NCBI GenBank assembly: GCA_964622215.1
Contig: CAZUNT010000009.1
Coordinates: forward strand, 2,081 to 66,080
From: an uncultured Caldilineaceae bacterium
GTDB lineage: Bacteria; Chloroflexota; Anaerolineae; 4572-78; J111
Reading direction: 5' to 3'
DNA: 64,000 nucleotides
Shown here one piece after another: positions 23,360 through 56,959 of the stretch (its first letter is position 1; each line of letters starts with the position of its first letter). Position numbers and translations under genes: made by a program. A model generated the notes under the pieces. The model was not told where the DNA came from. It did not search any database and worked only from the letters and a program-made list of their open reading frames with translations.

Positions 23360-23377
23360 AACCATCCTAAAATAGGA

Positions 23378-31645: not shown

Positions 31646-31659
31646 TGAAGATTCCTTGT

Positions 31660-37807: not shown

Positions 37808-37824
37808 TTCTTCCCTCTCCTTAA

Positions 37825-38472
37825 CTAAACCCACTGCCAACATTTAAGCTGCCAGCCGTGCCCTTTTACGGCCAGGGCGGCTGCATAGCCGGGAGCGGGA
37901 GCCAAAGTCTGAATAGACCAGGGAGCGGCAGCTTGGCGGTCGCCGCCGATGCTTAATAATCCGGCCGCTTCCCCCGGTGCTAACGAAACGTCAAACCCGG
38001 CTAAGGGCTGCGCTAACCCATCGCCCAGGGCTTTAATGTAGGCTTCCTTCCGAGTCCAGCAGTTGAAAAAGGCTGCTTGTCTCTGATCCGGCGGAAGCGA
38101 CAGCCATACGGCGCTTTCCTGGGCCGAAAAGAAACGGGCGGTGATTTGGTCGGCTTCGGAAATGGCGCGGATATATTCAATATCTACGCCGATTTCCCGC
38201 TCGCAGGTCACGGCATAGATGGCCAGGTTTTGCGAGTGCGCCAGGTTAAAACAGAGCCTGCCTGTCTGCCCGGTAAGCGTTCCAGCCAGAGCCGGCTTGC
38301 CGTGAGGACCATAGCAAAACTGTAACCGGCCTGGCTCAAGCCCCAGGTATTGCCCCAAAATCATTCTGAGTATCCCCCGGCCAACAATGAACCGCTGCCG
38401 ATCCCGCTCAAAATGGAAGCGTTCAACCCGCAGGCGTTCGTCTGGGGTCAGCGTTTGGGCCAACTGCTGCAC
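37825..38472 (-). CDS. Sfp-type 4'-phosphopantetheinyl transferase (the true start is probably upstream of 38472)
   Basis: LTPDERLRVERFHFERDRQRF, FNLAHS, GVDIE, WTRKEAYIKA. The reading frame stays open and conserved-looking up to 38577. Confidence 0.85.
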   Translation of the reverse strand: MQQLAQTLTPDERLRVERFHFERDRQRFIVGRGILRMILGQYLGLEPGRLQFCYGPHGKPALAGTLTGQTGRLCFNLAHSQNLAIYAVTCEREIGVDIEYIRAISEADQITARFFSAQESAVWLSLPPDQRQAAFFNCWTRKEAYIKALGDGLAQPLAGFDVSLAPGEAAGLLSIGGDRQAAAPWSIQTLAPAPGYAAALAVKGHGWQLKCWQWV

Positions 38473-38566: not shown

Positions 38567-38785
38567 CTAAGAGTCAGTGGACCCCTCCATTTTTTTTCTC
38601 AGGCTAAGAGGCCGCATGTCGGTCCAGACCTCTTTGATGTAGGCCAGGCAGTCTGCTTTGGGGCCGCTAAAACCCGCATCTCGCCAGCCCGGCGCGTTTT
38701 CCCGGTCGGCCGGCCAGATGGAATACTGTTCTTCATGATTGACAACAACTTTGTATATGGTATTGTCTTCCTGATCTTTATACAT
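38567..38785 (-). CDS. mbtH: MbtH-like protein
   Basis: [49 protein letters not shown]. The classic three-Trp MbtH signature. Confidence 0.95.
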
Positions 38786-38831: not shown

Positions 38832-41800
38832 TTACTTCGATGGCGGGGGTAGAAAGCCCCTACGAATAAAATATGACAGGTATACCCCAAACCGTTCGGC
38901 GTCAACGACAGGGCAGGTCAGATCAGAACCGGCCAGGGCATTTGTCAGATTCTCGGAGCCAAATTCAGGCGCTCGCTCTTGAGTGAATAGTTCAGGCATG
39001 GTCAGCATCGCTTCTCCTGGCGCTCGTTCGATGTAAAAGGGTAACAGCGAATATAAAGCATTCTCTGTAGAGTGTCCAACCTGTTTCATTAGCAGATTCA
39101 GCCACTGTTTATAGGGCGTCTGCTGCACCGGGTAGCCAAAAGCCGCCAGCCATTCGGCCAGCCGGCCCAGGGGCAAGCGGTGAGGCGTCAGCGTGTGAAA
39201 AACCTGGCCCCACGACTGCGACCGGAGGGAGAGGTAGATGATAGCCCGGCTGACAAAATCTACGGGGGTAAGCCGGGTGATTTCGTCCAGATCGGGCATC
39301 TCTCCTAATTGGATACAGCCTTTGATGAATCGGCATAAATAATCATCCGTGTTCCAGGCGCCGGTTTGGCTGTGTCCCACCACCGTTCCGGGCCGGTAGA
39401 TCGATACAGGCAGACCCCGCTCCCGGGCGGCCACAACCAGTTTTTCGGCTACCCACTTGCTCTGGGCGTAACCGAACAACAAGCTGTCACTGTGGCCTAC
39501 TTCGTCTTGCTCCCGGATGAGCTGCTTTTGGAGGTAGCCTAGCGAATCAAAAACGGAGATGGTCGAAACATAATGCACCGGGATGGCCTTGAGCCGGGTC
39601 GCCAGGCGCAAAACTTCCTGGGTTCCCAGGACATTGGCCGGTTTGAGTTTATGGTAGGGGTAGACAAAGTTAACCACCGCGCCGTTGTGATAAATGGCGT
39701 CCAGTTGACCGGCCAAATGCTGAAATTCTGAGGTTGATAGCCCCAAATAGGGTTGAGCCAGGTCGCCTACCACCGGGATAACCCGGGTAGTTAAGTGGGG
39801 ATGGTGCAGGAGATAAGTTTCAAAGTTCCGGTAGATTTTTTGGCGGCCCGCTTCGGCGTCGGCAGCGCGGACCAGGCAGTAAATGTGAGCCGAAGTTTGC
39901 TGCAAGAGTTCATACAACAGAAAAGCGCCTAGAAAGCCGGTAGCGCCGGTTAAAAGGATCGAAGCCGGATGGGCAGGCGGGGCTGGGAGCGGCGGCACAG
40001 CCGGGGGCCGAATAGCAGGGTCGAGGACGGCCTCGGCCTTAAAATCGATGCTTGGGGCAGTCGCAGCGGGGCCGGCGCGGCGAGTCAGATCGATGGCTTG
40101 GGCTAACCCGGCGACAGTTGCTGTGGTAAAAAATTCGCGTAGTGATAGTTCTACCTGAAAAACCTCACGCACCCGCAAAACCAGTTGTGTGGCTAACAGC
40201 GAATGTCCCCCTAACTCAAAAAAATCGTCGTGGATACCAACCCGCTCCAGGCCCAGAATTTCGGCCCAGATCGTAGCCAGCATTTCTTCCGTCGGATAGC
40301 GAGGTAAGGTGTAAGATTCACTTACTTCCGGCCTGGCGGAATCAGGTGCGGGTAAGGCTTTACGATCAATTTTGCCGTTGGGCGTCAGAGGCAGGGCCGC
40401 CAGGAAGACGAAACTGGATGGAATCATATAGTCGGGTAGGGTTTGTTTCAAAAAATTCCGCAGGTCGCTGTTGCGGGGCCTATCTCCCGGATGGGTGACG
40501 AGGTAGGCCACGAGTTGTTTTTGGTCTGACCCATCCTGGTTACTGCGGAACAACATCACGGCTTCACGCACGGCGGGATGGCGTCTTAAAGCGGCTTCAA
40601 TCTCGCCCAACTCCACCCGAAATCCCCGAATTTTGATCTGATGGTCCAGCCGGCCCAGGAATTCGATGTTACCGTCGGGCAGGTAGCGGGCCAGATCACC
40701 GGTCTTATAGAGACGACTGCCAACCACCGACGGCAGGCCGTTAAACGTTGGTACCTCCTCGGTGGCGATCGGCCGTTGTCCGTTAGCGGCCGAGCTAAAG
40801 GGATTTGGAATAAATTTCTCGGCGGTCAATCCTGGCCGGTTGAGGTAGCCGCGAGCCAGGCCGGCCCCACCGAGATACAGCTCACCGGGAACGCCGATGG
40901 GCACGGGCTGCAACTGCGCATCCAACAGGTAAACCTGGGTATTGGCAACCGGGCGGCCGATAGTCGCCGGCCCCTGGCTGCTGCGGAGGGCAAAGGTGGA
41001 GTAGGTGGTATCTTCGGAAGGTCCGTACAAATCAAAAACCCGTTGGACACTTTTCTGACGATAAAGCTGTTGTACCAATTCCGGGCGGAGCGGCTCACCG
41101 GCCAAGTTGACGGTTCGAACCGAAAGGGGCAAATCGCCCAGGCGTAATAACTCAGTCATAGCCGAGGGAACGGTATTGACCAGCGTAACCTGATGGGCGG
41201 CGGGCAAGGTAGGCAAGTGCAGAGCGTTCTCAACCAGAATGACTCGCCCGCCCCAACTCAAGGGCACAAACAGTTCAAACACGGACAGGTCGAAGTTGAT
41301 GGAGGTGGAGGCCAGTACCCCGGCCAGGTCGTCGGCGGTAAAGATTTGGCCGGCCCAGGCGACCAAGGCGACCGGACTGTGATGCTCGATGGCGACGCCT
41401 TTGGGCTGGCCGGTGGAGCCGGAGGTAAACAGGACGTAGGCCAAATTCTGAGGCGTCACTTCGCCGGCGGGGTTGTCGGCGCTGTGTTGGGTAATGGTCG
41501 GCCAATCCCGATCCAGGCAGACCAGCCGGGCGGAATGGCGGGGCAGCTTTTTGATAAGGCGCTGTTGGGTCAACAAGAGAGGGGTTTGGGTATCGGCCAG
41601 CATCCAGGCCAGGCGGTCGGGGGGATAGGTGGGGTCGAGAGGCAGATAAGCCGCACTTGCTTTGAGGATACCGAGCAATCCTACGACCATTTCCAGCGAG
41701 CGTTCCACGCAGAGGCCGACGATGACCTCCGGCCCTATCCCCTGCGCCCGCAGATAATGCGCCAGTTGGTTGGCCCGCCGGTTTAACTCGCCGTAAGTGA

Positions 41801-43298
41801 GGGTTTCGCTCTGGTAGGTGAGAGCATTGGCTTCAGGTATTTGCGCGACCCGGGCTTCAAACAGGTGATGGAGACACTGCTCTTGGGGGTAGTCGGCGGC
41901 GGTGTTGTTCCACTCAACCAGCAGTTGGCGCTGTTCGGCGGCGGTCAAGATGGATAAGTCCGACAGGCGAGCAGCAGGTTGGTCAACCATACCTTCCAGC
42001 AAAGTCTGAAAGTGGCCAAGTATCCGGCTGATGGCGGCGTGGTCAAAGTAGTCGCTGTCGTAGCTGAAACGCAGCCACAGGGCCGGCCCCGGCTCGACGA
42101 TGATGGTCAGGGGATAGTTGGTCTTTTCAAAAAAGTGGACATTACGAATGGTGATATGCTGGCCTTGCGCCGAACTCGGTTGGCTAACCGGATAATTCTC
42201 AAAAATCAGGATACTCTCAAACAAAGCTTGGCCCCGCGCTACCTCGCTCCAGCCCTGAACCTGGGCTAAGGGGCTGTATTCGTAATGGCGAGCTTCGATC
42301 TGCCGGGTCTGAAGTGTTTTGAGCCAGGCTGCCAACGTTATCTGCGGCGATACTGTAACCCGAACCGGCAGGGTGTTGATAAACAGCCCCATCATCGTCT
42401 CAACACCGCTCAGGTCGGCCGGACGCCCGGAAACGACTGCGCCAAAGAGTACATCCGCCTCACCACTGTAGCGGCTGAGGAGGATGGCCCAGGCTCCTTG
42501 TACCAGCGTGTTGAGGGTGACCTGGTACTGTCGGGCCAGAGCTTGCAGGGCCGTTGTAGCGGCCGGTGAGAGTTGTACTTGCTGCTCGGCGTATTCGTGT
42601 TCAGGACTCGACCCACTGCCCGGCAAGCGGTCAAAAAACAGCCGGGTTGGAGTGGTAAAACCTCTCAGTGTTTGCCGCCAGTAGGTCTCAGCTTGACCCA
42701 AATCTTGTTGTTGTAGCCAGGCAATGTAATCCCTGTAGGGACGGTCGGCGGCAAGGGGTAAATCTTCGCCGCGACAGCGGGCCTCATATAAGGTAAATAC
42801 CTCATTAAACAGCCTGGAAGCGCTCCAGCCGTCAAGCAGCAGGTGATGGAAGCTCCAAATAAAATGGTAACTGTGTTCAGCCAGGCGAATCAACACCAGG
42901 CGCATAAGCGGCGCTTTGGCCAGGTCAAACCCTTGCCGCCGGTCAGCTTGTAAAAAGGACTCTAATTGCCGTTGTTGTTCATCCGGCAGCATGTTGCGCC
43001 AATCGTATTCAGTCCAGGGCAATTTAACCTGCCGGCGGACCACCTGGAGTGGTTTGTCGCGGCGTTCCCACATAAACAGAGTGCGCAGAACTGCATACCG
43101 CTCCACCGCCTGCTGCCAGGCCTGTTGAAAGGCCGAGCGGTTCAGTTCACCGTGCAGGGTACAATCTAACTGTTCAAAATATATACCCGACGCCGGCGCA
43201 TAAAGGGTATGAAACAGCATGCCTGCCTGCATCGGTGAGAGAGGATAAATGGCTTCGATGTCGTTTTTAGCCATTGTTGTTTTGCTTACTCCTTCCAC
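38832..43298 (-). CDS. NRPS module 3: C(DCL-type)-A-T-R (terminal thioester reductase)
   Basis: YPLSPMQAGMLFH, HHLLLDGWS, LAYVLFTSGSTGQPKG, YKTGDLARY, NGKIDR, FFELGGHSLLA, LLTGATGFLGAFLL, YAQSKWVAE. Confidence 0.95.
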   Translation of the reverse strand: MEGVSKTTMAKNDIEAIYPLSPMQAGMLFHTLYAPASGIYFEQLDCTLHGELNRSAFQQAWQQAVERYAVLRTLFMWERRDKPLQVVRRQVKLPWTEYDWRNMLPDEQQRQLESFLQADRRQGFDLAKAPLMRLVLIRLAEHSYHFIWSFHHLLLDGWSASRLFNEVFTLYEARCRGEDLPLAADRPYRDYIAWLQQQDLGQAETYWRQTLRGFTTPTRLFFDRLPGSGSSPEHEYAEQQVQLSPAATTALQALARQYQVTLNTLVQGAWAILLSRYSGEADVLFGAVVSGRPADLSGVETMMGLFINTLPVRVTVSPQITLAAWLKTLQTRQIEARHYEYSPLAQVQGWSEVARGQALFESILIFENYPVSQPSSAQGQHITIRNVHFFEKTNYPLTIIVEPGPALWLRFSYDSDYFDHAAISRILGHFQTLLEGMVDQPAARLSDLSILTAAEQRQLLVEWNNTAADYPQEQCLHHLFEARVAQIPEANALTYQSETLTYGELNRRANQLAHYLRAQGIGPEVIVGLCVERSLEMVVGLLGILKASAAYLPLDPTYPPDRLAWMLADTQTPLLLTQQRLIKKLPRHSARLVCLDRDWPTITQHSADNPAGEVTPQNLAYVLFTSGSTGQPKGVAIEHHSPVALVAWAGQIFTADDLAGVLASTSINFDLSVFELFVPLSWGGRVILVENALHLPTLPAAHQVTLVNTVPSAMTELLRLGDLPLSVRTVNLAGEPLRPELVQQLYRQKSVQRVFDLYGPSEDTTYSTFALRSSQGPATIGRPVANTQVYLLDAQLQPVPIGVPGELYLGGAGLARGYLNRPGLTAEKFIPNPFSSAANGQRPIATEEVPTFNGLPSVVGSRLYKTGDLARYLPDGNIEFLGRLDHQIKIRGFRVELGEIEAALRRHPAVREAVMLFRSNQDGSDQKQLVAYLVTHPGDRPRNSDLRNFLKQTLPDYMIPSSFVFLAALPLTPNGKIDRKALPAPDSARPEVSESYTLPRYPTEEMLATIWAEILGLERVGIHDDFFELGGHSLLATQLVLRVREVFQVELSLREFFTTATVAGLAQAIDLTRRAGPAATAPSIDFKAEAVLDPAIRPPAVPPLPAPPAHPASILLTGATGFLGAFLLYELLQQTSAHIYCLVRAADAEAGRQKIYRNFETYLLHHPHLTTRVIPVVGDLAQPYLGLSTSEFQHLAGQLDAIYHNGAVVNFVYPYHKLKPANVLGTQEVLRLATRLKAIPVHYVSTISVFDSLGYLQKQLIREQDEVGHSDSLLFGYAQSKWVAEKLVVAARERGLPVSIYRPGTVVGHSQTGAWNTDDYLCRFIKGCIQLGEMPDLDEITRLTPVDFVSRAIIYLSLRSQSWGQVFHTLTPHRLPLGRLAEWLAAFGYPVQQTPYKQWLNLLMKQVGHSTENALYSLLPFYIERAPGEAMLTMPELFTQERAPEFGSENLTNALAGSDLTCPVVDAERFGVYLSYFIRRGFLPPPSK

Positions 43299-43361
43299 CT
43301 GGAAAGGCTAAAGCAAGCTTTGGACCCCATTTCCAACTGAAATTGAATACATCCAAATGAG

Positions 43362-46300
43362 TTACTCCATTGTCTCGTTCAAATCGGCCAATAGGTCGTC
43401 CAGCTCGGCTTGACTTAAATTTGCTTCCGGGAAGTCAGACGGGGTGTAGCCCCCGGCTTCGGGAGATTGGCAGTGGAGGATGAGAGCGCGCAGGGCGGCC
43501 ATAAAATCTCCGGCCAGGCGTTCGATGGTGGAACGCCGGTGAATATTTTCGCTATAAACCCAGGCCAGTTGCAATTGGCCGGCTATGATACTACTCTCAA
43601 CTTCCAGTACATAACGCCGTTGCCCACGCGGGCTGTGCTCTGAGCCGCTCAACTCGCGGGCCAGGCGAAATAAAGTTGACCCGCCCAAAACCTGGTCGAA
43701 TTGGCCCAGGTAATTAAAGCTTATCTCGGCTTGAGGCTGAGCGCGTAGTTGACTTTTGATGGCCGAGTCTTCGCTTAGATAGCGCAGCAAGCCGTAGCCA
43801 ATCCCATGCTCTGGGATCCGGCGTAGTTGTTCTTTGATAGATTTAAGCGCTTCACCGGGCCGGTGCGCCGACCGCAAATCTAAACATACCGGAAAGATGG
43901 TGGTGAACCAGCCGACCGTGCGCGATAGGTCTACTCCGGGCATAATTTCTTCGCGGCCATGACCTTCCAAGTCAAGCCGTAGGGCGGGGCTGCCCGTCCA
44001 TTCGGTCAGCGTCTGCGCCAGGGCCGTTAACAATACCTCATTGATTTGCGTGTGATAAGCAGCCGGCACATCCTGGAGTAGAGCGCGAGTCTCTGCGGTG
44101 GTGAGCGCCACCGTCACCGTGCGGGCCGAGGCTTCAGGGTTAGTCTGGCGTCCTTCCGGGTAGTCGATAGGAAGCGGCGGGATCGGCAGCGGTGATTCGG
44201 CCAGCCAGTGGGCCAACCCGGTCTGTTCGGTGGCCCGCTTTTTAGCCGCTTCAGCCAAACGTTCGGCCCATTGTTTATAGGAAGTGGTCTTGGCCGGCAG
44301 GTGGACAACCTCACCTTGCTCTAGTTGCTGGTAAGCCGTTTGTAAATCTTCCAGCAGGATACGCCAGGACACACCGTCAACAACCAGGTGATGGATGACG
44401 ATAAGTAAACGGTTTGGCTGCTCCGATCCCAGGTCAAGCAGAGCTACCCGTAACAGCGGTCCCTGGGTCAGGTTCAAGCTGGCCTGTAATTCGGCAGCGG
44501 CTGCCTCAATCACCGTGCCTGGCTCGATTGCCCCACGCGCAGCCAAATCAAGATGGGTAAAAGGCGTGTGCTCGGCCAGATCGGTCTCGATCTGCTGCCA
44601 GTTCCTCTCTTTACCCCCCGCTAGGGGAATGGAAGAGGAGGGATAAAACCTCATCCGAAGCGCATCATGATGAACCAGCAAGTACTGGATCGCTTGCTCC
44701 AGCAATAACGGGTTCAAAGGCTGTTTAGCCTCCAGTAACATCGCCTGGTTCCAGTAATGGGGGTCAGGTAAATTTTGTTCAAAGAACCAGTGCTGGATGG
44801 GGGTCAACGGCACGGGGCCGGTCACCGGACCCTGTTCGATGGAGGTTATTAAGGCTGTATCCGCTACTGCCGCCAACTCGGCAATGGTCTGATGTTGGAA
44901 GAATTGCCGGGGGGTTAGCCGAAGTCCGGCCTGATTGGCCCGAGCGATGATCTGAATACTGAGGATCGAGTCTCCACCCAGTTCAAAGAAGTTATCAAAT
45001 ACACCAACTCGTTCGATTTGCAGCACCTGGATCCAAATTTCGACCAACGTCTGCTCGATTTGATTCCGAGGGGCCGTGAGTGTTTTTTCTGCCGAGATGG
45101 GGCCGGCTTGATCCGGTACGGGTAGGGCGCGGCGGTCTATCTTGCCGTTGGGGGTGAGCGGCATTGCCTCCAGAAAAACAAAGGCGGAGGGAATCATATA
45201 CTCAGGCAGGGTTTGCTTGAGGAAAATTCGCAGTTCGGTCAGGGTGGGCCGGCGCTCCGGTTCAGCGACCAGATAAGCCACCAGTTGTTTTTGGCCTGGC
45301 CCATACTTGTCACTCCGGGCCAGTACGACTGTTTCCGACACGGTGGGATGCTGTCGCAGCGCCGCTTCAATCTCGCCCAATTCAATCCGATAACCGCGCA
45401 CCTTAACCTGGTGGTCCACCCGGCCCAGGAATTCTATGTTGCCATCCGGTAGATAGCGGGCCAGGTCACCGGAGTTATAAAGACGACTGCTGACCACGGA
45501 CGGCAGGCCGCTGAATACTGACGGTTCGGTTGCGGCAGGCGGGAGGTGGCGGTCGGCGATCGGGTTGAAGGGATTGGGAATGAATCTCTCGGCGGTCAAA
45601 TCGGGCCGGTTGAGATAACCCCTGGCCAGGCCGGAGCCGCCGAGATACAACTCACCGGGCACGCCGATGGGAACCGGCTGTAAGTGGGTGTCCAGAATAT
45701 AAGCCTGCACGTTGGCAATCGGGCGGCCGATGGAGATGAAGTGGGGCTGATCTCCACGCGGGCAAACCCAAAAAGTGGCGTCAATGGTGGCTTCGGTAGG
45801 GCCGTAGAGATTGATCAAATCTGCCGGCAATTGGGCATAGAAATGGGCTACCAGCTCAGGGGGCAGCGGCTCACCGCCGCAAAAAACTCGTTTCAGTGAG
45901 GTGCAAGCGGCAAATCCCGGCTCCGACACCAGCAGTTGCAGTAAAGAAGGGACGAGCTGCAGGATTGTAACCCGGCGTTCAGTAATCGTTTTGATGAGAT
46001 AGGCCGGGTCGGCATGCCCACCTGATCGGGCCAGGACCAGCCGCGCTCCGGCGAGTAGGGGCGCGTAAAATTCCCACACCGAGGCATCGAAACTAACCGG
46101 CGTTTTTTGGAACACAGCATCAGTTTCGTTTAACGGGAAGGCCGTTTGCAGCCATTGCATATGGTTGGCGATGGCTCGGTGTGAAATCATCACCCCTTTC
46201 GGCCGGCCGGTGGAGCCTGAGGTATAGAGGACATAGGCCAGGTTATCCGGTGTTATTTCGCTGCGCAAGTTTTTATCAGGTTGATTGGCGATAGTTTCCC

Positions 46301-48275
46301 AATCAGTATCCAAACAGATGAGTTTTGCCTCCTGCTTAGGTAAACGCTCGACCAGGCGGTGTTGCGTTAACAGCACCGGCGCTTGGGCGTTGGCCAGGAC
46401 AAAGGCGATTCGTTCCAGGGGATAGGCGGGGTCTTGCGGGATATAGGCCCCCCCGGCTTTGAGGACGCCGAGCATCGCCACGACCATCTCCACCGAGTTC
46501 TCCAAGCAAATGCCCACCAGTACATCTGGCCTCACTCCTAAACTCCGCAAATAGTGGGCCAGTTGGTTGGAGCGCCGGTTTAGCTCCCGGTAAGTCAAAA
46601 TTTGTTGGTCGAAGATGACCGCGATGGCGTCAGGTGTCCGCTCGATCTGAGCCTCGATGAGTTCAGGCAGGGTTAAAGCCGGGGTATACTCTGCCTCCGT
46701 AGCGTTCCATTCCTCCAGTAATTGCCGTCGCTCGGCCAGGGTAAGCAACGGCAGGCCGGAGAGTCGCTGGTCGAGGTTGGCGACGATACTCTCCAGCAAA
46801 GTCTGGTAATGCCCTGTCATCCGGGTGATGGTGGTGGAGTCAAACAGGTCGGTGTTGTATTCCCATTTTCCCAGCACTCCCTGGGGTGTATCGGTTACGT
46901 ACAAAGTCAACTCAAACTTGGTTACACCCGTGTCAACTTCAAACGGGCTAACAGTCAGCCCTGCCAGTTTTAGCAGCGGCAGAGAGGGCTGTGGAGCAAA
47001 AGCTACCTGGAACAGCGGGTTGTGGCCCAGGTCTCGCTCCGGGTGCAACGCTTCGACCAATTTCTCAAAGGGTAAATCTTGGTGCGCCTCAGCTCCCAAC
47101 ATCGTTTCTCGAACTCGTCCCAGTAACTCCCGAAACGTAGGGTGGCCGGCCAGGCTGGTGCGCAAGACAAGGGTGTTGACAAAAAAGCCGATGAGTTCCT
47201 CCAACTCGCTCCGGTTACGGTTGGATATCGGCAGGCCCACAATGACGTCGTCCTGGCCGGTGTAACGATAAAGCAGCGTCTTGAACGCCGCCAGGAGGGT
47301 CATAAACAAGGTGATACCGACCTGTTGGCTTAAAACTCGCAGGGCCTCGCTCAATTCCTGGGGCAGCAGCCATGTTTGGGCCGCGCCCCGGTAGGTTTGC
47401 ACCGCGGGTCGGGAGCGGTCGGTGGGCAGTTCCAGGCTGGGCGGATGGCTGCCCAAGCACTGACGCCAGTAGGCCAGTTGCTTTTCCAGCACCTCTCCTT
47501 GTTGCCACTGCCGCTGCCAAACGGCAAAGTCGGCGTATTGAAGGGACAGCTCAGGCAGCAATGCGGGTAATCCGGCCAGGTAAGCCTCGTAAAGCAGTGC
47601 TAGCTCGTGGAAGAGAACCTCCATAGACCAGCCATCGGTGATGATGTGATGCATAACCAGGAGCAATACGTGCTCCGTCTCGACCAATTGGAATAGAGCA
47701 ACTCGTAGGAGTGGACCTTGAGCCAGGTTAAAGGGGCGGCGAGCCTCCTCTTGCATTTTGGATTTTAAAGTTTGAATTTTAGACGGCTTATCTGATGAAG
47801 GGTGATCCTGGATTTGGGTCAAATCGTAAATCGTAAATCGTAAATCCAAAATTGGGTGGATAACTTGCACCGGTTGTCCGTCCACCGTTACAAAAGTGGT
47901 GCGCAAGATTTCGTGGCGGCGCACCAGGTCGCCCAGGCTTTGTTCCAGCGCGGTCATGTTGAGCGGGCCGACCAGGTGAAAGGCAGCCGTTTCATTGTAG
48001 GTGGGGCGGCCCGGTTCCAACTGGTCGAAAAACCAGAGGCGCTGCTGGGCAAAAGACAGCGGCAAATTTTGCCGGCGTGAGGCCGGCGTGATGGGTGGGG
48101 AGCCAGCTTGCACCCGGCGAAAAAATTCAAGGATTTCGGTTTTGCGGGCGCTCAATTCGGCCCGCAAGGCCGGGGTTACCGTCCCCTGGGGCGCGTTGTA
48201 ATGCAGCCGATCTCCATCGGCCGAAAGGTTGATCCCCAACTGGCGGAGATGGGATAGAAACTCGAGTAAAGTCAT
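43362..48275 (-). CDS. NRPS module 2: N-terminal docking domain-C(LCL-type)-A-T-E
   Basis: TubC-like N-terminus (LLEFLSHLRQLGINLSADGDRL), LSFAQQRLWF, MHHIITDGWS, LAYVLYTSGSTGRPKG, GGDSILSIQ (the T type found before E domains), HHLVVDGVSWRIL. Confidence 0.95.
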   Translation of the reverse strand: MTLLEFLSHLRQLGINLSADGDRLHYNAPQGTVTPALRAELSARKTEILEFFRRVQAGSPPITPASRRQNLPLSFAQQRLWFFDQLEPGRPTYNETAAFHLVGPLNMTALEQSLGDLVRRHEILRTTFVTVDGQPVQVIHPILDLRFTIYDLTQIQDHPSSDKPSKIQTLKSKMQEEARRPFNLAQGPLLRVALFQLVETEHVLLLVMHHIITDGWSMEVLFHELALLYEAYLAGLPALLPELSLQYADFAVWQRQWQQGEVLEKQLAYWRQCLGSHPPSLELPTDRSRPAVQTYRGAAQTWLLPQELSEALRVLSQQVGITLFMTLLAAFKTLLYRYTGQDDVIVGLPISNRNRSELEELIGFFVNTLVLRTSLAGHPTFRELLGRVRETMLGAEAHQDLPFEKLVEALHPERDLGHNPLFQVAFAPQPSLPLLKLAGLTVSPFEVDTGVTKFELTLYVTDTPQGVLGKWEYNTDLFDSTTITRMTGHYQTLLESIVANLDQRLSGLPLLTLAERRQLLEEWNATEAEYTPALTLPELIEAQIERTPDAIAVIFDQQILTYRELNRRSNQLAHYLRSLGVRPDVLVGICLENSVEMVVAMLGVLKAGGAYIPQDPAYPLERIAFVLANAQAPVLLTQHRLVERLPKQEAKLICLDTDWETIANQPDKNLRSEITPDNLAYVLYTSGSTGRPKGVMISHRAIANHMQWLQTAFPLNETDAVFQKTPVSFDASVWEFYAPLLAGARLVLARSGGHADPAYLIKTITERRVTILQLVPSLLQLLVSEPGFAACTSLKRVFCGGEPLPPELVAHFYAQLPADLINLYGPTEATIDATFWVCPRGDQPHFISIGRPIANVQAYILDTHLQPVPIGVPGELYLGGSGLARGYLNRPDLTAERFIPNPFNPIADRHLPPAATEPSVFSGLPSVVSSRLYNSGDLARYLPDGNIEFLGRVDHQVKVRGYRIELGEIEAALRQHPTVSETVVLARSDKYGPGQKQLVAYLVAEPERRPTLTELRIFLKQTLPEYMIPSAFVFLEAMPLTPNGKIDRRALPVPDQAGPISAEKTLTAPRNQIEQTLVEIWIQVLQIERVGVFDNFFELGGDSILSIQIIARANQAGLRLTPRQFFQHQTIAELAAVADTALITSIEQGPVTGPVPLTPIQHWFFEQNLPDPHYWNQAMLLEAKQPLNPLLLEQAIQYLLVHHDALRMRFYPSSSIPLAGGKERNWQQIETDLAEHTPFTHLDLAARGAIEPGTVIEAAAAELQASLNLTQGPLLRVALLDLGSEQPNRLLIVIHHLVVDGVSWRILLEDLQTAYQQLEQGEVVHLPAKTTSYKQWAERLAEAAKKRATEQTGLAHWLAESPLPIPPLPIDYPEGRQTNPEASARTVTVALTTAETRALLQDVPAAYHTQINEVLLTALAQTLTEWTGSPALRLDLEGHGREEIMPGVDLSRTVGWFTTIFPVCLDLRSAHRPGEALKSIKEQLRRIPEHGIGYGLLRYLSEDSAIKSQLRAQPQAEISFNYLGQFDQVLGGSTLFRLARELSGSEHSPRGQRRYVLEVESSIIAGQLQLAWVYSENIHRRSTIERLAGDFMAALRALILHCQSPEAGGYTPSDFPEANLSQAELDDLLADLNETME
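47810..47847. repeat. In-frame heptamer tandem repeat inside the NRPS2 C domain
   Basis: GGATTT..(AAATCGT)x3..AAATCC on the + strand, encoding ..LDLRFTIYDL.. on the - strand. Confidence 0.7.
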
Positions 48276-51200
48276 ATTTCGCCCTCTTCACGCTCTCCCC
48301 AATCCCCGGGCTGGGGGCCGGGAAGCCCGCCCTGGGCGGCCCATCGGAGCGTTTCGATATGTTCGGCCAGGGTGGCGACCGTAGGAGTTTCGAACATGGT
48401 ACGCAAAGGTAATTCTAACTGGAGCGTATCGCGGAGCCGGGAGATAATGCGGGTAGCCAGGAGGGATTGGCCGCCCAACTCAAAGAAGTTGTCTTGAACG
48501 CCAACTTGTTCCAGGCCCAGTACCTCGGCCCAAATACCGGCCAGGAGGGCCTCAGTAGGGGTACGCGGAGCTGCGAAAGTTTCCCCAGATTGGGGCCGAG
48601 CGAAATCGGGTGGGGGCAGGGCGCGGCGATCTACTTTGCCGTTGGGCGTTAAGGGGAGCGTATCTAGTAATATAAACACGGACGGCAGCATATAGTCAGG
48701 TAGTTTTGCCGGCAAGAAACGGCGCAACTCAAATATTAGGGAGGTGGGTATAGGGTGGGGAGCTTGTTTGGGAACCAGGTAAGCAATCAAACGTTTGTCT
48801 CCTGCCGGGTCTTCATTAACCACGACCACACTTCCCTGTACGGCCGGGTGCTGATTCAGCGCCACTTCAATCTCACCCAATTCAATCCGGTAGCCACGTA
48901 CCTTGACTTGGTGATCCCGGCGCCCGAGAAACTCAAGGTTACCATCCGGCCGGTAGCGGGCCAAATCACCGGACCTATAAAGGCGGGACGCTTCGCGTGA
49001 GGGCTGAAGGATGAAGGGAGGGGTTTCATCCTTCTTCTGCTTTTCTTTCATCCTGCCACCTTCATCCTTCATCCTTCCAAAGGGGTTTGGGATAAATTTT
49101 TCGGCGGTGGCCGTCGGGTGATCGAGGTAGCCCCGGGCCAGGCCGGCTCCGCCAAGATATAACTCGCCGGGAATACCGATAGGCACGGGCTGCAACTGCT
49201 CGTCCAGGAGATAAATCTGGGTATTGGCAATGGGGCGACCGATGGTGGCCGGCCCCTGGCTATCTCGAAGGGCAAAGGTAGAGTAGGTTGTATCTTCAGA
49301 GGGACCGTAAAGGTCAAAAACTCGTTGAACGCTCTTTTGCCGATAAATCTGCTGCACCAATTCGGGGCGGAGCGGCTCGCCGGCCAAGTTGACGGTTCGG
49401 ACCGAAGCGGGCAAATTGCCGGCCCGCAACAATTCAGCCATAGCTGAGGGGACTGTATTAATCAGAGTCACTTGTCGGGCTGCGGGTAAGGTGGGCAAAT
49501 GCAGAGCATTCTCGGCCAGAATAACGCGCCCGCCCCAACTCAAGGGCACAAATAGCTCAAACACCGATAGGTCGAAATTGAGCGAGGTGGAGGCCAATAC
49601 ACCGGCCAGGTCACTCGCCGTAAAAATCTGACCCGCCCAGGCCACCAGGGCGACCGGGCTGCGGTGCTCAATGGCGACCCCCTTGGGCTGACCGGTTGAA
49701 CCTGAGGTAAACAAAACATAGGCTAAATTTTGCGGCGTCACCCCACTGTCCGGATTCTCAACGTTGTACCGGGTAATGGCCGGCCAGTCTTTGTCCAGGC
49801 AGATGACGCGAGCCTTATGTTCCGGTAGTTTTTCAACCAGCCGCTGTTGGGTTAGTAACACCGGAACCTGGGTATTGGCCAACATCAGGGCCAGCCGTTC
49901 CTGGGGATAAACGGGGTCGAGCGGCACATAAGCCCCACCCGCCTTGAGGATGCCCAACAGCCCTACCACCATTTCCAGGGAACGGGTTATACAAAGGCCG
50001 ACGATAACCTCCGGGCCGACTCCGTGCGCTTGCAGATAATGCGCCAGTTGGTTGGCCCGCTGGTTCAATTCTTGATAGGTGATCATCCTTTCCCGCTCTC
50101 TGGCCAAAAGGGAGGTGCTGGGGCGGGTGAACGGGGTCACGGCAATTGCTTCAGGCACTCGTTCCACCTGAGTTTCAAACAGTTGGTGCAAGCAGCGGTC
50201 GCGGGGATAATCGGCTTCAGTTTGGTTCCACTCTACCAACACCTGGCGGCGTTCGTCTTCCGGCAGGAGAGACAAATGGACCAGGGGTTGGTGAGGTTGG
50301 CTAATGATACTTTGGAGCAAGGTGCTGAACTGAGCGGCTATCCTGACCAGGTTAGACTCGGTCAGAACTTGCGGGTCATAGAGCCAGTAACAGGAATAGC
50401 TCGTTTCTTCCAGTGGAATGACCAGCGTCAAATTACTGTCAGCCGTTTCAGACTTGTGGGGATCGATTAGGTTCTCGACTTGTTCAACGATGACAGGCCA
50501 GAGAGGTTTTACCCCCGGTTGGGGTAATGAACTCAGTTCCGGGTATCTGGCCGGAACATCGCGGGCATAAGTCTGGTGATGATTGACTAACTCAACCCCG
50601 TCGCGCATGGCCTGGTAGACCTGCTCAAAGGGCCACATGGGATTTAGCTCAATTCGTAGGGGAACTGTTGCGCTGAACAAGCCCTCCAATCCGGCCAGGC
50701 TGCGCTTCAACTCGGCCGGTTTGAAACCCAAATCAAAACAGCTAACCCCGTTAAGCCGGGCCAGGTAGGCAACCCAGGCCGCCAGTAGAAAATCGCTTAA
50801 CCGCCAGCCGGACTGTTGGTTCTGGAGGAAGGTATTAACTTCGGCGGGAATGGGCATGGGTAAACGAACTCTTCGCGCTGATTGGTCAGGTGTGGCATCT
50901 CTTTCCAGGTAGGGCAATGAAATGGGCTGTATCGTCGCCAGGCGCTCCACCCAGAAGGACTCATGCGGGCAAAGGGCTGCATACAGGGTGGTCATACGGC
51001 CGGTTATCCCCAGATCAAGGTCGGGCAGCCGGTAGCCCTCGCCCAGCCCAAATTGAGTGACGAGATCAGGAATCGCCAGAGGGCGACCATCTATAGTTAG
51101 CAACCGGCGGAGCAAAACCTGATGGGTGGCAGAGGCGACCTGAAGAAAATCAGGCCCCAGGTAGGTGATGGTCCCTGGCGGGACCGGAATTTTCGCGGTG

Positions 51201-51961
51201 AAGATTTCGACTTCTGAGACAAGGAGAAACTCTGGGCCCAGGAATAATTTTGGATAAGCGACCGGGTTGGGATACGGTCCAAAATGCAGCGCCCGAACCA
51301 GGGCCTCAATATCGGCGGCGGTTTGTTGCCACGAAAGCAGGCCACCGGCCGATGGTTTTTGGCAGCGCCAAAAGTAGGTGCGTTCGGCCAGATTTTGGGG
51401 GTGCGCCGGTACACGCCCACGCGCCAAATCATCAACTAACTCAGCAAATGAGCGTATCGCGGCGTCGTAGCATTTGGTGTTGAGTGTCAACGCGGTCTCA
51501 TCGGCAGCAAGATCAACAGGGACCTGTTTTAAGATATCGCCCGCGTTGACCTGGGGGGTCATCACGTGCCAGGTGACGGCGTAGGCGGTTTCGTGTTGAA
51601 GAATAGCCCAGGAGGTAGGGTAATGGCCGGCGTATTTGGGCAAAGGCCCGTCATGATAATTGATGGCCCCCCGCCGGGGTAAAGCCAGCACAGAGGGGGG
51701 AAGGATGACATCACTGGCGAGGCTGAACAGATAATCAAAGGAAGCCTGGCCCAACCAGGCGATAAGATCAACTGGGGTGGGTAAGCCCTTGTTTATTTTA
51801 AGATGGGGGATGTTTTTTTTTGCCGCCCATCGGAGTAGTGATATATCGGAGGAAACAACACCACAAGCGGTATGTCCGGCCTGGAGCAGAATGTCGATAC
51901 ACTGAATGGGCAGCGTCCCTTCACCAATGATCACACTGCTTAATTTGTCATAGCCGCTCAT
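48272..51961 (-). CDS. NRPS loading module: formyltransferase-like domain - C-terminal half of a C domain - A - T
   Basis: INYHDGPLPKYAG and NAGDIL (Fmt-type Asn/His/Asp), a C-domain-like region without HHxxxDG, LAYVLFTSGSTGQPKG, GGQSLLA. The 4-nt ATGA overlaps the NRPS2 start. Confidence 0.9.
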   Translation of the reverse strand: MSGYDKLSSVIIGEGTLPIQCIDILLQAGHTACGVVSSDISLLRWAAKKNIPHLKINKGLPTPVDLIAWLGQASFDYLFSLASDVILPPSVLALPRRGAINYHDGPLPKYAGHYPTSWAILQHETAYAVTWHVMTPQVNAGDILKQVPVDLAADETALTLNTKCYDAAIRSFAELVDDLARGRVPAHPQNLAERTYFWRCQKPSAGGLLSWQQTAADIEALVRALHFGPYPNPVAYPKLFLGPEFLLVSEVEIFTAKIPVPPGTITYLGPDFLQVASATHQVLLRRLLTIDGRPLAIPDLVTQFGLGEGYRLPDLDLGITGRMTTLYAALCPHESFWVERLATIQPISLPYLERDATPDQSARRVRLPMPIPAEVNTFLQNQQSGWRLSDFLLAAWVAYLARLNGVSCFDLGFKPAELKRSLAGLEGLFSATVPLRIELNPMWPFEQVYQAMRDGVELVNHHQTYARDVPARYPELSSLPQPGVKPLWPVIVEQVENLIDPHKSETADSNLTLVIPLEETSYSCYWLYDPQVLTESNLVRIAAQFSTLLQSIISQPHQPLVHLSLLPEDERRQVLVEWNQTEADYPRDRCLHQLFETQVERVPEAIAVTPFTRPSTSLLARERERMITYQELNQRANQLAHYLQAHGVGPEVIVGLCITRSLEMVVGLLGILKAGGAYVPLDPVYPQERLALMLANTQVPVLLTQQRLVEKLPEHKARVICLDKDWPAITRYNVENPDSGVTPQNLAYVLFTSGSTGQPKGVAIEHRSPVALVAWAGQIFTASDLAGVLASTSLNFDLSVFELFVPLSWGGRVILAENALHLPTLPAARQVTLINTVPSAMAELLRAGNLPASVRTVNLAGEPLRPELVQQIYRQKSVQRVFDLYGPSEDTTYSTFALRDSQGPATIGRPIANTQIYLLDEQLQPVPIGIPGELYLGGAGLARGYLDHPTATAEKFIPNPFGRMKDEGGRMKEKQKKDETPPFILQPSREASRLYRSGDLARYRPDGNLEFLGRRDHQVKVRGYRIELGEIEVALNQHPAVQGSVVVVNEDPAGDKRLIAYLVPKQAPHPIPTSLIFELRRFLPAKLPDYMLPSVFILLDTLPLTPNGKVDRRALPPPDFARPQSGETFAAPRTPTEALLAGIWAEVLGLEQVGVQDNFFELGGQSLLATRIISRLRDTLQLELPLRTMFETPTVATLAEHIETLRWAAQGGLPGPQPGDWGEREEGEI
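48986..49078. repeat. In-frame GGATGAA/TTCATCC heptamer palindrome inside the NRPS1 A domain
   Basis: GAAGGATGAA (49006-49015) / TTCATCCTTC (49025-49034) hairpin plus three or more further TTCATCC copies. It encodes GRMKDEGGRMKEKQKKDETPPFILQPSREAS. Confidence 0.75.
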
Positions 51962-51963
51962 GA

Positions 51964-54900
51964 TTAATCGAACTTGTCATAAAACTTCTGCAATTCACGG
52001 GTTCGAGCACGGGTCAAGTCGGCAATCCGGTCGTTAGCATCCCGTAAGCGTTGGCTCAGCACCTTGATCAGTTCCAGGGATAGATCAGGGTATTGGCGAG
52101 CCAGGACGATTAAAGGTTCGCGGCGTAGCCGTAAGATTAAGGTATCTTGGATGGCAGTTGCACTGGCCGAGCGCGGACTGTCGTCAAACAGATTCATTTC
52201 ACCAAAGTAAGAGTGAGCTTCAATAGTAGCCAGACGGGCAAAGGAACCTTTTCGTTTTTCTTGTTCAATGGCCACCCGACCACTAACAACTACATACAGT
52301 GCACCGCCGGGGTCATTTTCATTAAAGATACGGGTATCCTCTTCAAATAATTCCTCTTCGCATACATTCGCCAGCACTTTCAACTGATCAATGGTCATAC
52401 CCTCGAAAAAGGGAACTTCCTTCAAAAAGATAATTTTTTCGATGGTTGAAAGCAAAATTCCCTCCTCCTGGACTAAATTAGCAATATAAACGCCGGCCAT
52501 CATCTGTTTGGCGGCGCGTGCGGCCAGGCGCACATCAATGGAAGGATCGGCAAAGGCCTTGTCTACCAATGCTTCAATTTCCGACAGGGTAAAAGGAACC
52601 GGGCCGGACGAAGCTGCTGTGTTATTTACTTCGGGTTTTTCATCAGGCATGGGAGTGGAGCCAGGGCTGCCCACCAACGCACCCAGCAGGTCAACTGGCC
52701 TCCTCCGCCGTGTTTTTAAGTTTTCCGGGGGACTCTCTGGGGCGGATGGCTCGTCTTTGGCTGTTTCTGCCAGCGCGTTTAGCAGGTCGGTGGGATTGGG
52801 CCGGCGGGCCCGACGAAATTCAGGTTTGGTTTCTTGAAGCGGTTGGATGTCACTATCTGGTTCGGTTGGGGTATCAAATATACTGGCCGGTTGGGGCCGG
52901 CGGGCCGAATCCGAGGCGGCCTCGGCCAGGGATGAGTCACCCGGCCCTGCGGTCTCCACAGGCCGCAGAGCTGCCCCCATTTCGCCCAAAGCCAACGTCA
53001 TGATGGCTCGAAAGGATGAGTCGTCAGCGGTGGTGAGGAGTTGTTTAGTAGCGGTTGCCATGTCGGGAAAGGGCATGGCCCAGGTTTCCTGGCTGATTTG
53101 CAATAACTGGCTGAAATCGGGTTCCGGTTCAAACAGCGGCGCCAACAAGTGGGCCGTCTGGGGAGTAGTCAATGCTTCGAGCGCCTCCAGGGCATTAACT
53201 CGCACATGAGACGTTTCGCTGCGGAGCGACTCCGCTACCGTTTTTATCGTCTCTGGAGTATGGATAGCGGCCAGCAAATAAAAAATTTCTGTGACCAGTT
53301 GTTGATTTTGTTCCCGGAGCGCACTCTGTAAAACAGAAATACTGGGGTATACGGCGCAAGACTTCAGGGCCGCCAGGCGACCCATGTTGCGGTAAATAGT
53401 CAGCAGATTGCCGGTGATGTATGTCTCGACCAGGGGGCCAAAGTTACGCTGGTTGATGCGGCTCAGAATGACCGCTGCCATTTTACGCTGTTGGGGGTCA
53501 GGCGAGTCGAGGAGCGGATGAACGATGGGAATAGCCCCTTTACCAATTTGAACCAGAACATTTACGGCTGTGGCCCTCACTTGAGGGCTGGGATCGGTCA
53601 ATGCCCCCACCAACTCTTGGTACGAGTCATGAGTACCGATACATCCCAATACGATCAGAGCCGTCCGGCGTACCCGTTCAATGGGGTCTCGCCGTAGCGG
53701 GTCTATCGCTTCCAAAATCAAGCTGGTGGCCGGGAGAGACAGTTTCTCTTGGGCCAAGGCTTCAACGGCCAGTGCTGCTTCCAGGCGAACTTCATCGGCA
53801 GGATCGGCCAGGTATTTAACCAAGCCCTCAACGAAATGTTGACCGTTGGTATGTTCCAATACCCGCACTCCCCGAACCCGTTGGTGGGCTTCTTCATGAC
53901 ACAGGAACCCATTCAACGCCTGGGTTGCCGCGTCTTGATAGACCGGGTTATGGGAGCGAAGCAGGATAGGCAAAGCGCGGACTTGCACCTCCACCTCGGG
54001 ATCGTCCAACATTTTCAGCGCGAGTTCTAGTAGTTCCTCTCCCCCTGTCCCTGCCCATTCTTCTAGTCCGGTCAGGGCCGCTTGTCGAACTTGCCCCTCA
54101 GGATCAGCCAAAAAATCGGTATAAAGTTGGCGCGCCGCCTCACTTCGTGTGTCGGCAGCCACAAGAACGTCAATGATGCCGGCCCGGATCCGCCCGTCAG
54201 TGGCCGATCTGGCTGCCTGTCCCAGGATGGAAACGGCTTCACTTCCGCCAATCTCGCTGATGAGTTTAGCCATGAAGAGGGTCAGTTCATAACTGGTGCT
54301 TTCCTGGAGTTTTTTGTGCAATCCATTAAGCGTAGCCGGATCGGCGGCCGTCAGCCGGGCGACGCCTTGGGACACCAGGGCCGAAAAATCTTCTTGCTCC
54401 AACATCTTTACCAGGGCCAGGCTGTACTGGCGGCGAATCGCCAGCGCGCTGATAACGAAAGTCACCGCGAATAGCCCGATAACTACCGGTAAAAATCCGG
54501 CTATTTTGACCAGGGGTAATGAGAGTAACGCTCCCCCCAGCAGCGCCCCCACCGGCACCACGATACCACCAATAAAAACGTGTGCTCGCCCTTTGACTCT
54601 CAAGGGAACGGCATTATATAACAGGCTTTCAATGGGATAGCCTACGTTGCTATAGAAAACGATCCGGCCAAAATGGGCCAGGGCTGCCGTGAACAGACCT
54701 CGCCAGAAAATTAATCCCCCGGAGATAGCCAGCATCCCGGTGGGATAAATCAAGTTAGCATTTCCTACACCAACCCGGCTGATCATCCGGCTCAACAGCA
54801 GAAGTTGTAGGGGTAAGACAATCAGGTTGGCAATCCAGGTGACTCGAGCAATAAAATTGGAAATATTTTTGGTGGTTTCGAGTTCGCTGGCTGTCGCCAA

Positions 54901-56603: not shown

Positions 56604-56617
56604 ACGCCTCTCCAAAT

Positions 56618-56959
56618 TTATTCTTTATCCAACATATCGTCTAAAGCTGACCAGACCCCCAGGGTCAATTTCTTATCAGGTTTGCGGGCGAAATGAGCCT
56701 TATACCAAATTTCATCCCGAACCTCAATTCGCCGCATCAACCCTTTCTGCACCAACTCGTCTAGCATCTGCTGGGTTTGGGCGAGAGATTGGCTCATATC
56801 TCTAGCGATGTCGGATAGGCTCATCCCATTCTTGCGGACGATTTTTTTAACAATCGTCGCCAATTCGGGGGGCAAATCTAATAGGTCAATAGGAGAAAGT
56901 CCTTCTTGCTGTCCCCGTGCGTCAATTTCACCCTGTAAGCGATCAAATAGTCCACTCAT
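56618..56959 (-). CDS. Small winged-helix (MarR/ArsR-like) DNA-binding protein
   Basis: MSLSDIARDMSQSLAQTQQMLDELVQKGLMRRIEVRDEIWYKA. The ATG at 56959 overlaps the upstream TGA (TGATG). Confidence 0.7.
   Translation of the reverse strand: MSGLFDRLQGEIDARGQQEGLSPIDLLDLPPELATIVKKIVRKNGMSLSDIARDMSQSLAQTQQMLDELVQKGLMRRIEVRDEIWYKAHFARKPDKKLTLGVWSALDDMLDKE

Follow-up and report, generated by a model that had tools for sequence, protein, structure and literature searches.

A predicted formylating and reductively terminated three-module peptide synthetase next to a conserved sensor locus in an Anaerolineae-like (Chloroflexota) genome

Linear gramicidin synthetase (LgrA-D) comprises 16 modules; in it, an N-terminal formyltransferase (F) domain acts on the first amino acid bound to a thiolation (T) domain, epimerisation (E) domains are present and the chain is released reductively, resulting in a peptide with a formyl cap and a reduced C-terminus. 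MxaA, which ends a polyketide synthase (PKS) line, has a terminal module formed by condensation (C), adenylation (A), T and reductase (R) domains, which loads Ala and reduces the alanyl thioester to 2-aminopropanol. In microcystin synthetase, the C domain of McyB1 comes after the E domain of McyA2, and its donor is therefore D-configured. Judged by likeness, these are the nearest analogues of a non-ribosomal peptide synthetase (NRPS) encoded at positions 38832-51961 of the DNA stretch analysed here: LgrA-D for the formyl start and the reductive end, MxaA for the Ala-R ending, and McyA2/McyB1 for the Ala pocket and for the junction between an E domain and a C domain of the D-donor (DCL) type. 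The stretch, indicated as the window in the following, spans 64,000 nucleotides of a contig from an uncultured Caldilineaceae bacterium. The NRPS interval corresponds to exactly three consecutive open reading frames (ORFs) of the minus strand, named N1, N2 and N3.

The three ORFs are interpreted as an intact three-protein, three-module NRPS of an Anaerolineae-like (Chloroflexota) genome, with a predicted product composed of formyl-Ala, D-Gln and a reduced Ala; a probability of about 0.7 is assigned to this reading. The architecture derived from Pfam matches is F-C*-A-T / dock-C-A-T-E / C-A-T-R, where C* is a truncated C domain and dock a docking domain, followed by genes for a MbtH-like protein and for a phosphopantetheinyl transferase (PPTase). 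N1, the initiation module (48272-51961, 1229 aa), matches Formyl_trans_N, Formyl_trans_C, Condensation (partially, over profile positions 194-329 only), AMP-binding, AMP-binding_C and PP-binding. N2, the second module (43362-48275, 1637 aa), matches TubC_N, Condensation, AMP-binding with AMP-binding_C, PP-binding and a second Condensation-type domain, which is the E domain. N3, the termination module (38832-43298), matches Condensation, AMP-binding with AMP-binding_C, PP-binding and NAD_binding_4; it is 1488 aa long, while its database copy begins at M9 and has 1480 aa. Both parts of the A domain are found in all three proteins, the equivalents of K517 being residues 1109 of N1, 1045 of N2 and 976 of N3. 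Similarly, all three T domains match PP-binding and contain the phosphopantetheine serine motif GGxS, as GGQSL at 1163 in T1 (N1 aa 1140-1202), GGDSI at 1100-1104 of N2 in T2 and GGHSL at 1030 of N3 in T3.

The specificity codes of A1 (N1 aa 595-1109; 48635-50179), A2 (N2 aa 541-1045) and A3 (N3 aa 480-976) were extracted by aligning the domains with MAFFT to residues 35-527 of GrsA-PheA (1AMU, the PDB copy being 100% identical to the query) and reading positions 235, 236, 239, 278, 299, 301, 322, 330, 331 and 517. As a control, GrsA gave the expected code, DAWTIAAICK. A1 (N1 residues 797 to 1109) and A3 both read DLFNNALTYK, while A2 reads DAWQFGLIDK. Identical codes had been mapped by hand in an earlier note on this DNA, made from its letters, where they were assigned to Ala and Gln. 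Of the pocket motifs listed there, FDLSVFE and FDASVWE were located; VNTVPS, assigned to both A1 and A3, occurs only in A3, A1 having INTVPS, and position 278 is N in both domains.

For A2, this assignment agrees with the literature: DAWQFGLIDK is the code of a Gln-activating domain of tyrocidine synthetase (PMC2866473, Table 2), and it is quoted elsewhere (PMC8313283) as a Gln code reported by Rausch et al. 2005. Full-text literature searches for DLFNNALTYK and DLFNNALTY produced no match. The pocket region of A1 and A3 was instead judged by comparison with PDB sequences, among which McyA (8JBR) is the top match, with 205 bits versus 86 for the next one. McyA2 is identical to A1 and A3 at all nine variable pocket positions (FDLSVFE / INTVP / NLAGE / NLYGPSEDTTYS), and L-Ala was its strongest substrate in a hydroxylamine-release assay (bioRxiv 10.1101/2023.11.13.566838). 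The pocket thus appears to be that of an L-Ala-activating domain, in line with the Ala code proposed by eye, and the call of Ala, Gln and Ala as substrates seems well founded, to the limit of code-based prediction.

The F domain of N1 (aa 1-302; 51056-51961), defined by Pfam and PDB comparison, matches the formyltransferases ArnA-FT and FMT with 60-78 bits over both subdomains (ArnA 78), versus 41 bits for LgrA-F, where only the catalytic core is covered. N101, H103 and D142 align with the catalytic triad of ArnA and are conserved in 120, 119 and 107, respectively, of 120 close homologs. Downstream lies the C-terminal lobe of a C domain (C-lobe; aa ~333-580; 50222-50965): residues ~335-579 align with the C-terminal half of known C domains (194-456 of Txo, 241-462 of McyB), and HHxxxDG is missing. 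A confident AlphaFold (AF2) model of N1 residues 1-600 was built on a 40-sequence alignment (pLDDT 88.4, pTM 0.84); superposition of its first ~310 residues on complete structures of FMT/ArnA-FT gives TM scores of 0.82-0.89, normalised to the target. The formylating start suggested by the earlier note is supported by the F domain and its triad, but the truncated C domain of ~250 aa between F and A had been missed, and N1 is no simple F-A-T module.

This arrangement differs from that of LgrA, in which an F domain of only 193 residues directly adjoins A (PMC10510592). Instead of a small F domain of ~190 aa fused directly to A, N1 has a two-subdomain F domain of the FMT/ArnA type, ~300 aa long and including the FMT-type C-terminal subdomain, and ~250 aa of C-lobe before A. 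N1 would accordingly work like the LgrA initiation module, while appearing to belong to a separate architectural family. The retained C-lobe would most plausibly preserve the platform formed by C and A domains (C:A platform), and probably serves this role only, consistent with the dependence of A activity on the C domain reported for McyA2 (bioRxiv 10.1101/2023.11.13.566838).

Searches with the F and C-lobe regions of N1 defined a large family: 1428 cluster representatives (clustering at 50% identity) match at E<=1e-30, and in each of the 150 best ones the match extends over the whole or most of the 580-aa query. Many cyanobacterial proteins are included, and Gln codes are present in some members. 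No HHxxxDG precedes the A domain in 117 of 120 close N1 homologs. The code of the first A domain is of the Ala type in 41 and of the Gly type in 19 of 115 family members, in a sample biased to relatives of an Ala module. A possible further member is ApdA of the cyanobacterial anabaenopeptilide pathway, which formylates Gln and whose N-terminal formyltransferase-like region is long (~600 aa); its downstream modules differ from those described here. A scan of genome contigs with N1 detected no close relative, the best match being 50% identical and most matches covering only the C-lobe, A and T regions.

Two further groups of sequences were observed within this family. Hundreds of single-module proteins of ~1460 aa, organised as F-C*-A-T-TE, where TE is a thioesterase domain, occur in Acidobacteriota, cyanobacteria and Actinomycetota (e.g. 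P0006, P0007 and P0010-P0012); on paper, their product would be an N-formyl amino acid only. In P0369, P0385, P0388, P0396, P0455 and P0477 the F and C-lobe regions are internal, starting at residue ~430-1490, a position unexpected for a domain capping the first amine.

The subtypes of the C, E and R domains were assigned by bit scores against solved structures, whose status as LCL or DCL we take from the literature and general knowledge. The C domain of N2 (aa 69-520; LSFAQQRLWF at 73-82, HHIITDG at 209) is closest to the LCL-type domains of Txo1/Txo2 (356/348 bits) and TycC6 (293), versus 128 and 116 bits for the D-donor types TycB1 and SrfA-C. The reverse is seen for the C domain of N3 (aa 15-460; SPMQAGMLFH at 21-30, HHLLLDG at 151), which matches McyB1 with 493, SrfA-C with 303 and TycB1 with 298 bits, versus at most 119 for LCL types. 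In both elongation C domains HHxxxDG is present and the Condensation match is full-length. All 10 PDB matches of the E region of N2 (aa ~1150-1600; HHLVVDG at 1295, EGHGRE at 1437, FNYLGQ at 1520) are E domains or E-containing chains, with PvdL-E at 410, TycB-E at 320 and GrsA-E at 302 bits. The A and C domains of LgrA are also among the best PDB matches of this NRPS.

The R domain (N3 aa 1114-1480) aligns end to end with MxaA-R (4U7W), with 381 bits, versus 69 for the aldehyde-forming AusA-R. In the alignment with MxaA-R it keeps the Rossmann motif TGATGFLG (at 1117), the active-site Thr/Ser region and the YxxxK motif, as YAQSK (at 1277); YVSTISV is found at 1243. The domain order read by eye in the earlier note, with an LCL-type first full C domain, a GGDSI-type T domain before E, a DCL-type last C domain and a terminal R domain, is recovered at each of these points, and the catalytic motifs of E and R, on whose presence that reading had been made to depend, were all found.

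The protein termini would fit the order N1, N2, N3: N1 ends with ...GEREEGEI (48275-48319) and N2 opens with a TubC_N-type docking domain (aa 5-53), while N2 ends with a COM-like tail (TPSDFP...LDDLL) and N3 opens with MAKNDIEAIYPLSPMQ. The MbtH-like protein is encoded immediately afterwards (38567-38785, minus strand, 72 aa). Its translation contains GW...YI...WTDMRP; an exact-sequence look-up returned 0 records, and the ortholog is annotated as PF03621 in five related loci, which are designated here by L numbers (L001, L084, L085, L088 and L089). The next gene (37825-38472, minus strand) codes for a 4'-phosphopantetheinyl transferase of the Sfp/HetI type, with Pfam matches to ACPS and AASDHPPT_N and a match of 233 bits, below the curated cut-off, to the NCBIfam model 4PPT_HetI. 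The earliest start of this ORF is a GTG, giving 215 aa, ~20 residues fewer at the N-terminus than in the 235-aa L001 ortholog.

On these grounds, assembly would start with priming of T1-T3, at their serine motifs, by the HetI-type PPTase. A1, together with its MbtH-like partner, would load L-Ala on T1, as its code indicates, and the F domain, given its FMT/ArnA-type fold and N-H-D triad, would formylate Ala-S-T1 from N10-formyl-tetrahydrofolate, by analogy with LgrA and FMT. The ...REEGEI tail of N1 would dock on the TubC_N domain of N2, whose LCL-type C domain would couple formyl-Ala to L-Gln-S-T2. The E domain would then epimerise Gln, the DCL-type C domain of N3 would take the D-form and add L-Ala, and the MxaA-like R domain would release the chain by an NAD(P)H-dependent reduction. 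Domain identities, motifs and codes are read from the sequence; activity, stereochemistry, the formyl donor and the number of reductions are inferred from established NRPS logic.

A single reduction would yield N-formyl-L-Ala-D-Gln-L-alaninal (C12H20N4O5) as the product, and a second one the corresponding alaninol (C12H22N4O5). The alcohol is considered somewhat more likely, because the R domain is by far closest to MxaA-R, work on which is cited as an example for alcohol products (PMC8024701). The earlier note had proposed release as an aldehyde or alcohol; reductive release is retained, and the balance is tilted to the alcohol by the 381 bits for MxaA-R against 69 for AusA-R. Neither imine nor pyrazinone cyclisation is expected, since the N-terminus would be capped.

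Differences from the known systems are also evident. In comparison with LgrA-D, only three modules are present, on three proteins, and no LgrE-like second reductase is found. With respect to MxaA, the upstream chain is a predicted formyl-dipeptide, and a four-electron outcome would be expected here from likeness only. The pathway is also distinct from that of microcystin synthetase, no PKS part, TE domain or macrocycle being found.

Several considerations weigh against the proposed assembly. Metabolite, product and activity are all predictions; small residues (Ala, Gly, Ser) can be mis-called by Stachelhaus codes, as the ten-residue codes used above are named; and two-electron and four-electron reduction are not reliably readable from the sequence of an R domain. 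In addition, module 3 is not shared with the nearest relative. This locus (L001/L082; GCA_974054335.1) is 77% identical in N1, 78.5% in N2 and 76% in the C domain of N3, and its modules 1 and 2 carry the same Ala and Gln codes, but it has an unrelated third A domain (51% identity) and lacks the R domain. Module 3 of the window therefore appears to be a mosaic, and its activity is a prediction. A close ortholog of N3 was sought in 5.8 billion proteins and none was found, the best full-length match being 57% identical; taken together with the differences in the third A and R domains, this suggests that the Ala-R ending is specific to this lineage.

Within the NRPS itself, A1 and A3 are 73% identical overall and 82-97% across the core delimited by motifs A3-A6; in its C-terminal subdomain, however, A3 resembles A2 more than A1. 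The possibility that A3 arose by a recent duplication of A1 was rejected: the DNA identity is only ~82% over the core, so that the mosaic seen at the protein level would reflect an older exchange or a shared origin.

At the last step of the line, an alternative outcome was evaluated. The R domain may stop after one reduction, releasing the peptide aldehyde fAla-D-Gln-alaninal, which would inhibit proteases covalently, as do peptide aldehydes made by other NRPSs. Elastatinal ends in Gln-alaninal, and no gene for a separate LgrE-like aldo-keto reductase is found in the array of genes that includes the NRPS. R domains of the short-chain dehydrogenase/reductase (SDR) type can release aldehydes (PMC8024701, PMC7586950). 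Nonetheless, the closest characterised R domain is the alcohol-cited MxaA-R, the score for the aldehyde-forming AusA-R being much lower, and protease-inhibitor scaffolds would not usually have a D-residue at P2; the inhibitor is hence regarded as a doubtful outcome, with the formylated, alcohol-ended tripeptide still preferred.

A second alternative concerns the biological role of the peptide and is compatible with the favoured chemistry. The NRPS is part of a single same-strand array extending from 60839 to 30881 with very short gaps, which encodes, in order, a cyclase with AAA_16, a winged helix-turn-helix (wHTH)-like protein, a ParA-like ATPase, a TLC/HEAT/cNMP protein (cNMP, cyclic nucleotide), N1-N3, MbtH, PPTase, a SBP_bac_5 solute-binding protein (SBP), a 4HB_MCP-HAMP-GAF protein, a second ParA-like ATPase, a GlmM-like and a GlmU-N-like protein. 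All genes of the array lie on the minus strand and were assigned by Pfam, unless otherwise stated. The SBP (35987-37843) has a signal peptide with a lipobox (…LLLAAC), and its gene overlaps the PPTase ORF by 19 nt. The next gene, overlapping that of the SBP by 8 nt, codes for a membrane sensor organised as TM-4HB_MCP/CHASE3-TM-HAMP-GAF (33919-35994), in which hydrophobic segments at aa 33-64 and 350-378, the two transmembrane (TM) segments, flank the extracytoplasmic four-helix bundle (4HB). The TLC/HEAT/cNMP protein (51964-55716), in which HEAT repeats and a cNMP-binding domain are combined with an N-terminal domain resembling TLC transporters, is a membrane protein with ~8 hydrophobic segments in aa 48-429, and its gene stops 2 nt before the start codon of N1. 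The most upstream gene (57330-60839) codes for an adenylate/guanylate cyclase fused to an AAA_16 STAND protein.

With these genes at hand, the peptide could be a self-made extracellular signal, possibly exported by the TLC/HEAT/cNMP protein and bound by the SBP, which would dock on the 4HB/CHASE3-HAMP-GAF sensor and feed a cNMP network. In E. coli, the 4HB chemoreceptor Tap relays the signal of DppA once this has bound a peptide. The likeness, a matter of genes alone and useful as context only, consists in a SBP_bac_5 gene located beside one for a membrane transducer with a 4HB extracytoplasmic domain and HAMP; here, however, the output is a GAF domain and not a methyl-accepting signalling domain, and the ligand would be self-made.

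Related loci were collected by look-ups of SBP homologs and by a metagenome scan combined with tblastn. The source name of SBP homologs, 'Anaerolineae bacterium', is the basis for calling the genome Anaerolineae-like. The six SBP homologs from the look-ups (56-76% identity) all have a small NRPS on one side and, on the other, the same HAMP-GAF gene, which overlaps their stop codon; a MbtH gene is present in all but L087. The same NRPS / SBP / HAMP-GAF arrangement is shown by L094, L104 and L123, found by the metagenome scan. Altogether, a small NRPS lies directly upstream in every non-redundant locus whose SBP is at least 56% identical and for which at least 4 kb of upstream sequence is available (L082, L084, L085, L087, L088, L089, L094, L104 and L123), MbtH being present in most, and the overlapping HAMP-GAF gene is found in all loci at this identity for which downstream sequence is available. 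SBP homologs at most 54% identical are generally without NRPS or HAMP-GAF neighbours.

Other genes of the array recur as well. A ParA/MinD-like ATPase follows the sensor in L082, L085, L087, L089, L094, L096, L104 and L123; genes for the cyclase-AAA_16 and for cNMP-binding proteins are found in L085, L087, L094, L104 and L123; in L088, a protein of the TLC/HEAT/cNMP type is encoded upstream of the NRPS. In contrast to the conserved sensor genes, the NRPSs vary between loci in both codes and architecture: the one in the window, given above, is replaced by F-C*-A-T / C-A-T / dock-C-A-T-R in L084, by ...A-T / C-A-T / C-A-T-X in L085 and L087, where the second module of L085 also has an E domain, and by A-MT-T / C-A-T-TE, with MT a methyltransferase domain, in L088 and L089.

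A terminal domain of ~430 aa was observed in L085 (8464-9762) and at the C-terminus of N3 of L087. It contains a GxGxxG-like sequence (VGVLGLGSIG), has no Pfam match at E<=1e-4 and may be an undescribed release domain.

The pairing of an extracytoplasmic SBP with a membrane transducer, encoded together with no permease genes alongside, is thus conserved across loci, and so is the presence of a small NRPS next to it; on grounds of synteny, this suggests perception of the peptide by the SBP/transducer pair, and the lipoprotein is a candidate receptor. Among the window ORFs scanned for permease genes, only one of the branched-chain amino-acid type was found (61719-62738), with none of the Opp/Dpp type beside the SBP, while the more distant L099 homolog adjoins OppB/C permeases. 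The recurrence of cyclase-STAND and cNMP-binding genes and the variability of the NRPS against constant sensor genes also speak for a signal. On the other side, synteny alone is no proof of binding, an enzymatic output domain is not recognised in the sensor, and the locus may be nothing more than a hot spot for insertions. A PDB search with the SBP yielded only distant, generic peptide-binding proteins and no MppA-like or metallophore-specific signal. Sensor genes can also occur without a synthetase: in L098 (1-9391), which lacks the NRPS, genes for ParA, a HEAT/cNMP protein directly upstream of the SBP-containing part, a 320-aa ORF without Pfam match, the SBP and a CHASE3-HAMP-GAF protein were observed. 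A signalling role is, on balance, possible but unlikely. Somewhat less probable, and put forward as a tentative proposal, is the more general model in which a conserved Anaerolineae-like signalling locus, with the TLC/HEAT/cNMP protein, the orphan SBP, the 4HB/CHASE3-HAMP-GAF transducer, the ParA-like ATPase and cyclase-STAND proteins, would host an interchangeable small-NRPS cassette. Its di- or tripeptide (fAla-D-Gln-alaninol or -alaninal in the window) would be the cognate ligand, a non-ribosomal, lineage-variable signal that is perceived by way of a binding-protein-dependent receptor and coupled to cyclic-nucleotide signalling.

Uptake of a metallophore by the SBP, as for NikA/CntA relatives, was also considered. 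It is judged unlikely, since the predicted peptide lacks chelating groups and a permease gene of the Opp/Dpp type was not found beside the SBP.

The earlier note had finally pointed to PMM/PGM and GlmU-N-like genes downstream on the same strand, which are indeed present at 30881-33096, as genes for a GlmM-like phosphohexomutase (31660-33096) and for a GlmU N-terminal-type uridylyltransferase (30881-31645), both with NCBIfam matches below the curated cut-off. In favour of the muropeptide-like molecule linked there to this pair, and to the L-Ala-D-Glx start of the peptidoglycan stem peptide, are the position of the two genes, 5 kb downstream of the NRPS with short intergenic gaps, and the resemblance of L-Ala-D-Gln to L-Ala-D-isoGln. 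The idea is nevertheless very improbable: besides the window, the pair is found after the locus in L082, L096 and also L089, with its unrelated A-MT-T...TE system and different codes, and it is missing from L085, L087, L094, L104 and L123; the array contains no glycosyltransferase or Mur ligase; by established chemistry, the NRPS would join D-Gln through its alpha-carboxyl, leaving a free side-chain amide, and not as gamma-linked isoglutamine; and a formylated N-terminus cannot carry the link to the lactyl group of N-acetylmuramic acid. Comparative context, expected alpha-linkage and formyl cap thus leave the idea unsupported, and the two genes are judged to be neighbours, probably outside the pathway, rather than a tailoring set.

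The remaining genes of the array code for the upstream ParA-like ATPase (55848-56615), for the small wHTH-like protein (56618-57157) and for the ParA/MinD-like P-loop ATPase between the sensor and GlmM-like genes (33143-33901, Pfam and NCBIfam). An Rfam search of the window gave nothing; promoter and terminator scans did not exceed shuffled expectation and do not define the operon boundaries. Part of the locus has an identical copy in run ERR14964780. In the literature, no report was found matching this cluster, NRPS products combining N-formyl and alaninol, or an Anaerolineae NRPS/SBP locus.

Outside the array, an island for tetrahydromethanopterin/methanofuran C1-transfer and cofactor biosynthesis was observed at 4044-30900, with genes for DUF2193, a Mpt_N dehydrogenase-like protein, FTR/FTR_C, GXGXG (Fhc/Fmd-C-like), the MCH cyclohydrolase, a RimK-like ATP-grasp protein, a CitG-like protein, a HPPK+folE2 fusion, Hydantoinase_A, 4-HFC-P synthase (MfnB), DUF6513/Pterin_bind and beta-RFAP synthase; its position adjoining a formylating NRPS is probably a coincidence. 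A large STAND-type regulator, with BTAD, NB-ARC and TPR, lies at the window edge (319-3681, minus strand). AT-rich patches are seen at 10000-14000 and 22000-24000, with a GC content of 0.44-0.48 against 0.55-0.60 around them, and contain ORFs with no or weak family matches (DUF11-like).

The cluster is an orphan, predicted to direct the synthesis of a very small capped peptide, formylated at the N-terminus, reduced at the C-terminus and containing one D-residue, a 'mini-gramicidin' layout from the poorly cultured Anaerolineae; the peptide would be easy to synthesise and easily searched for by mass. The assembly line itself is ordinary, and the parts worth following are the F and C-lobe architecture and the conserved NRPS-sensor locus. 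In the former, a full FMT/ArnA-type formyltransferase takes the place of the N-terminal lobe of a C domain while the C-lobe is kept, differently from the structurally studied LgrA, and the family is of use in explaining how C:A platforms acquire tailoring domains by grafting. As to the latter, if the coupling between NRPS and sensor is functional, the locus would represent a case, open to testing, in which Chloroflexota perceive NRPS peptides as signals.

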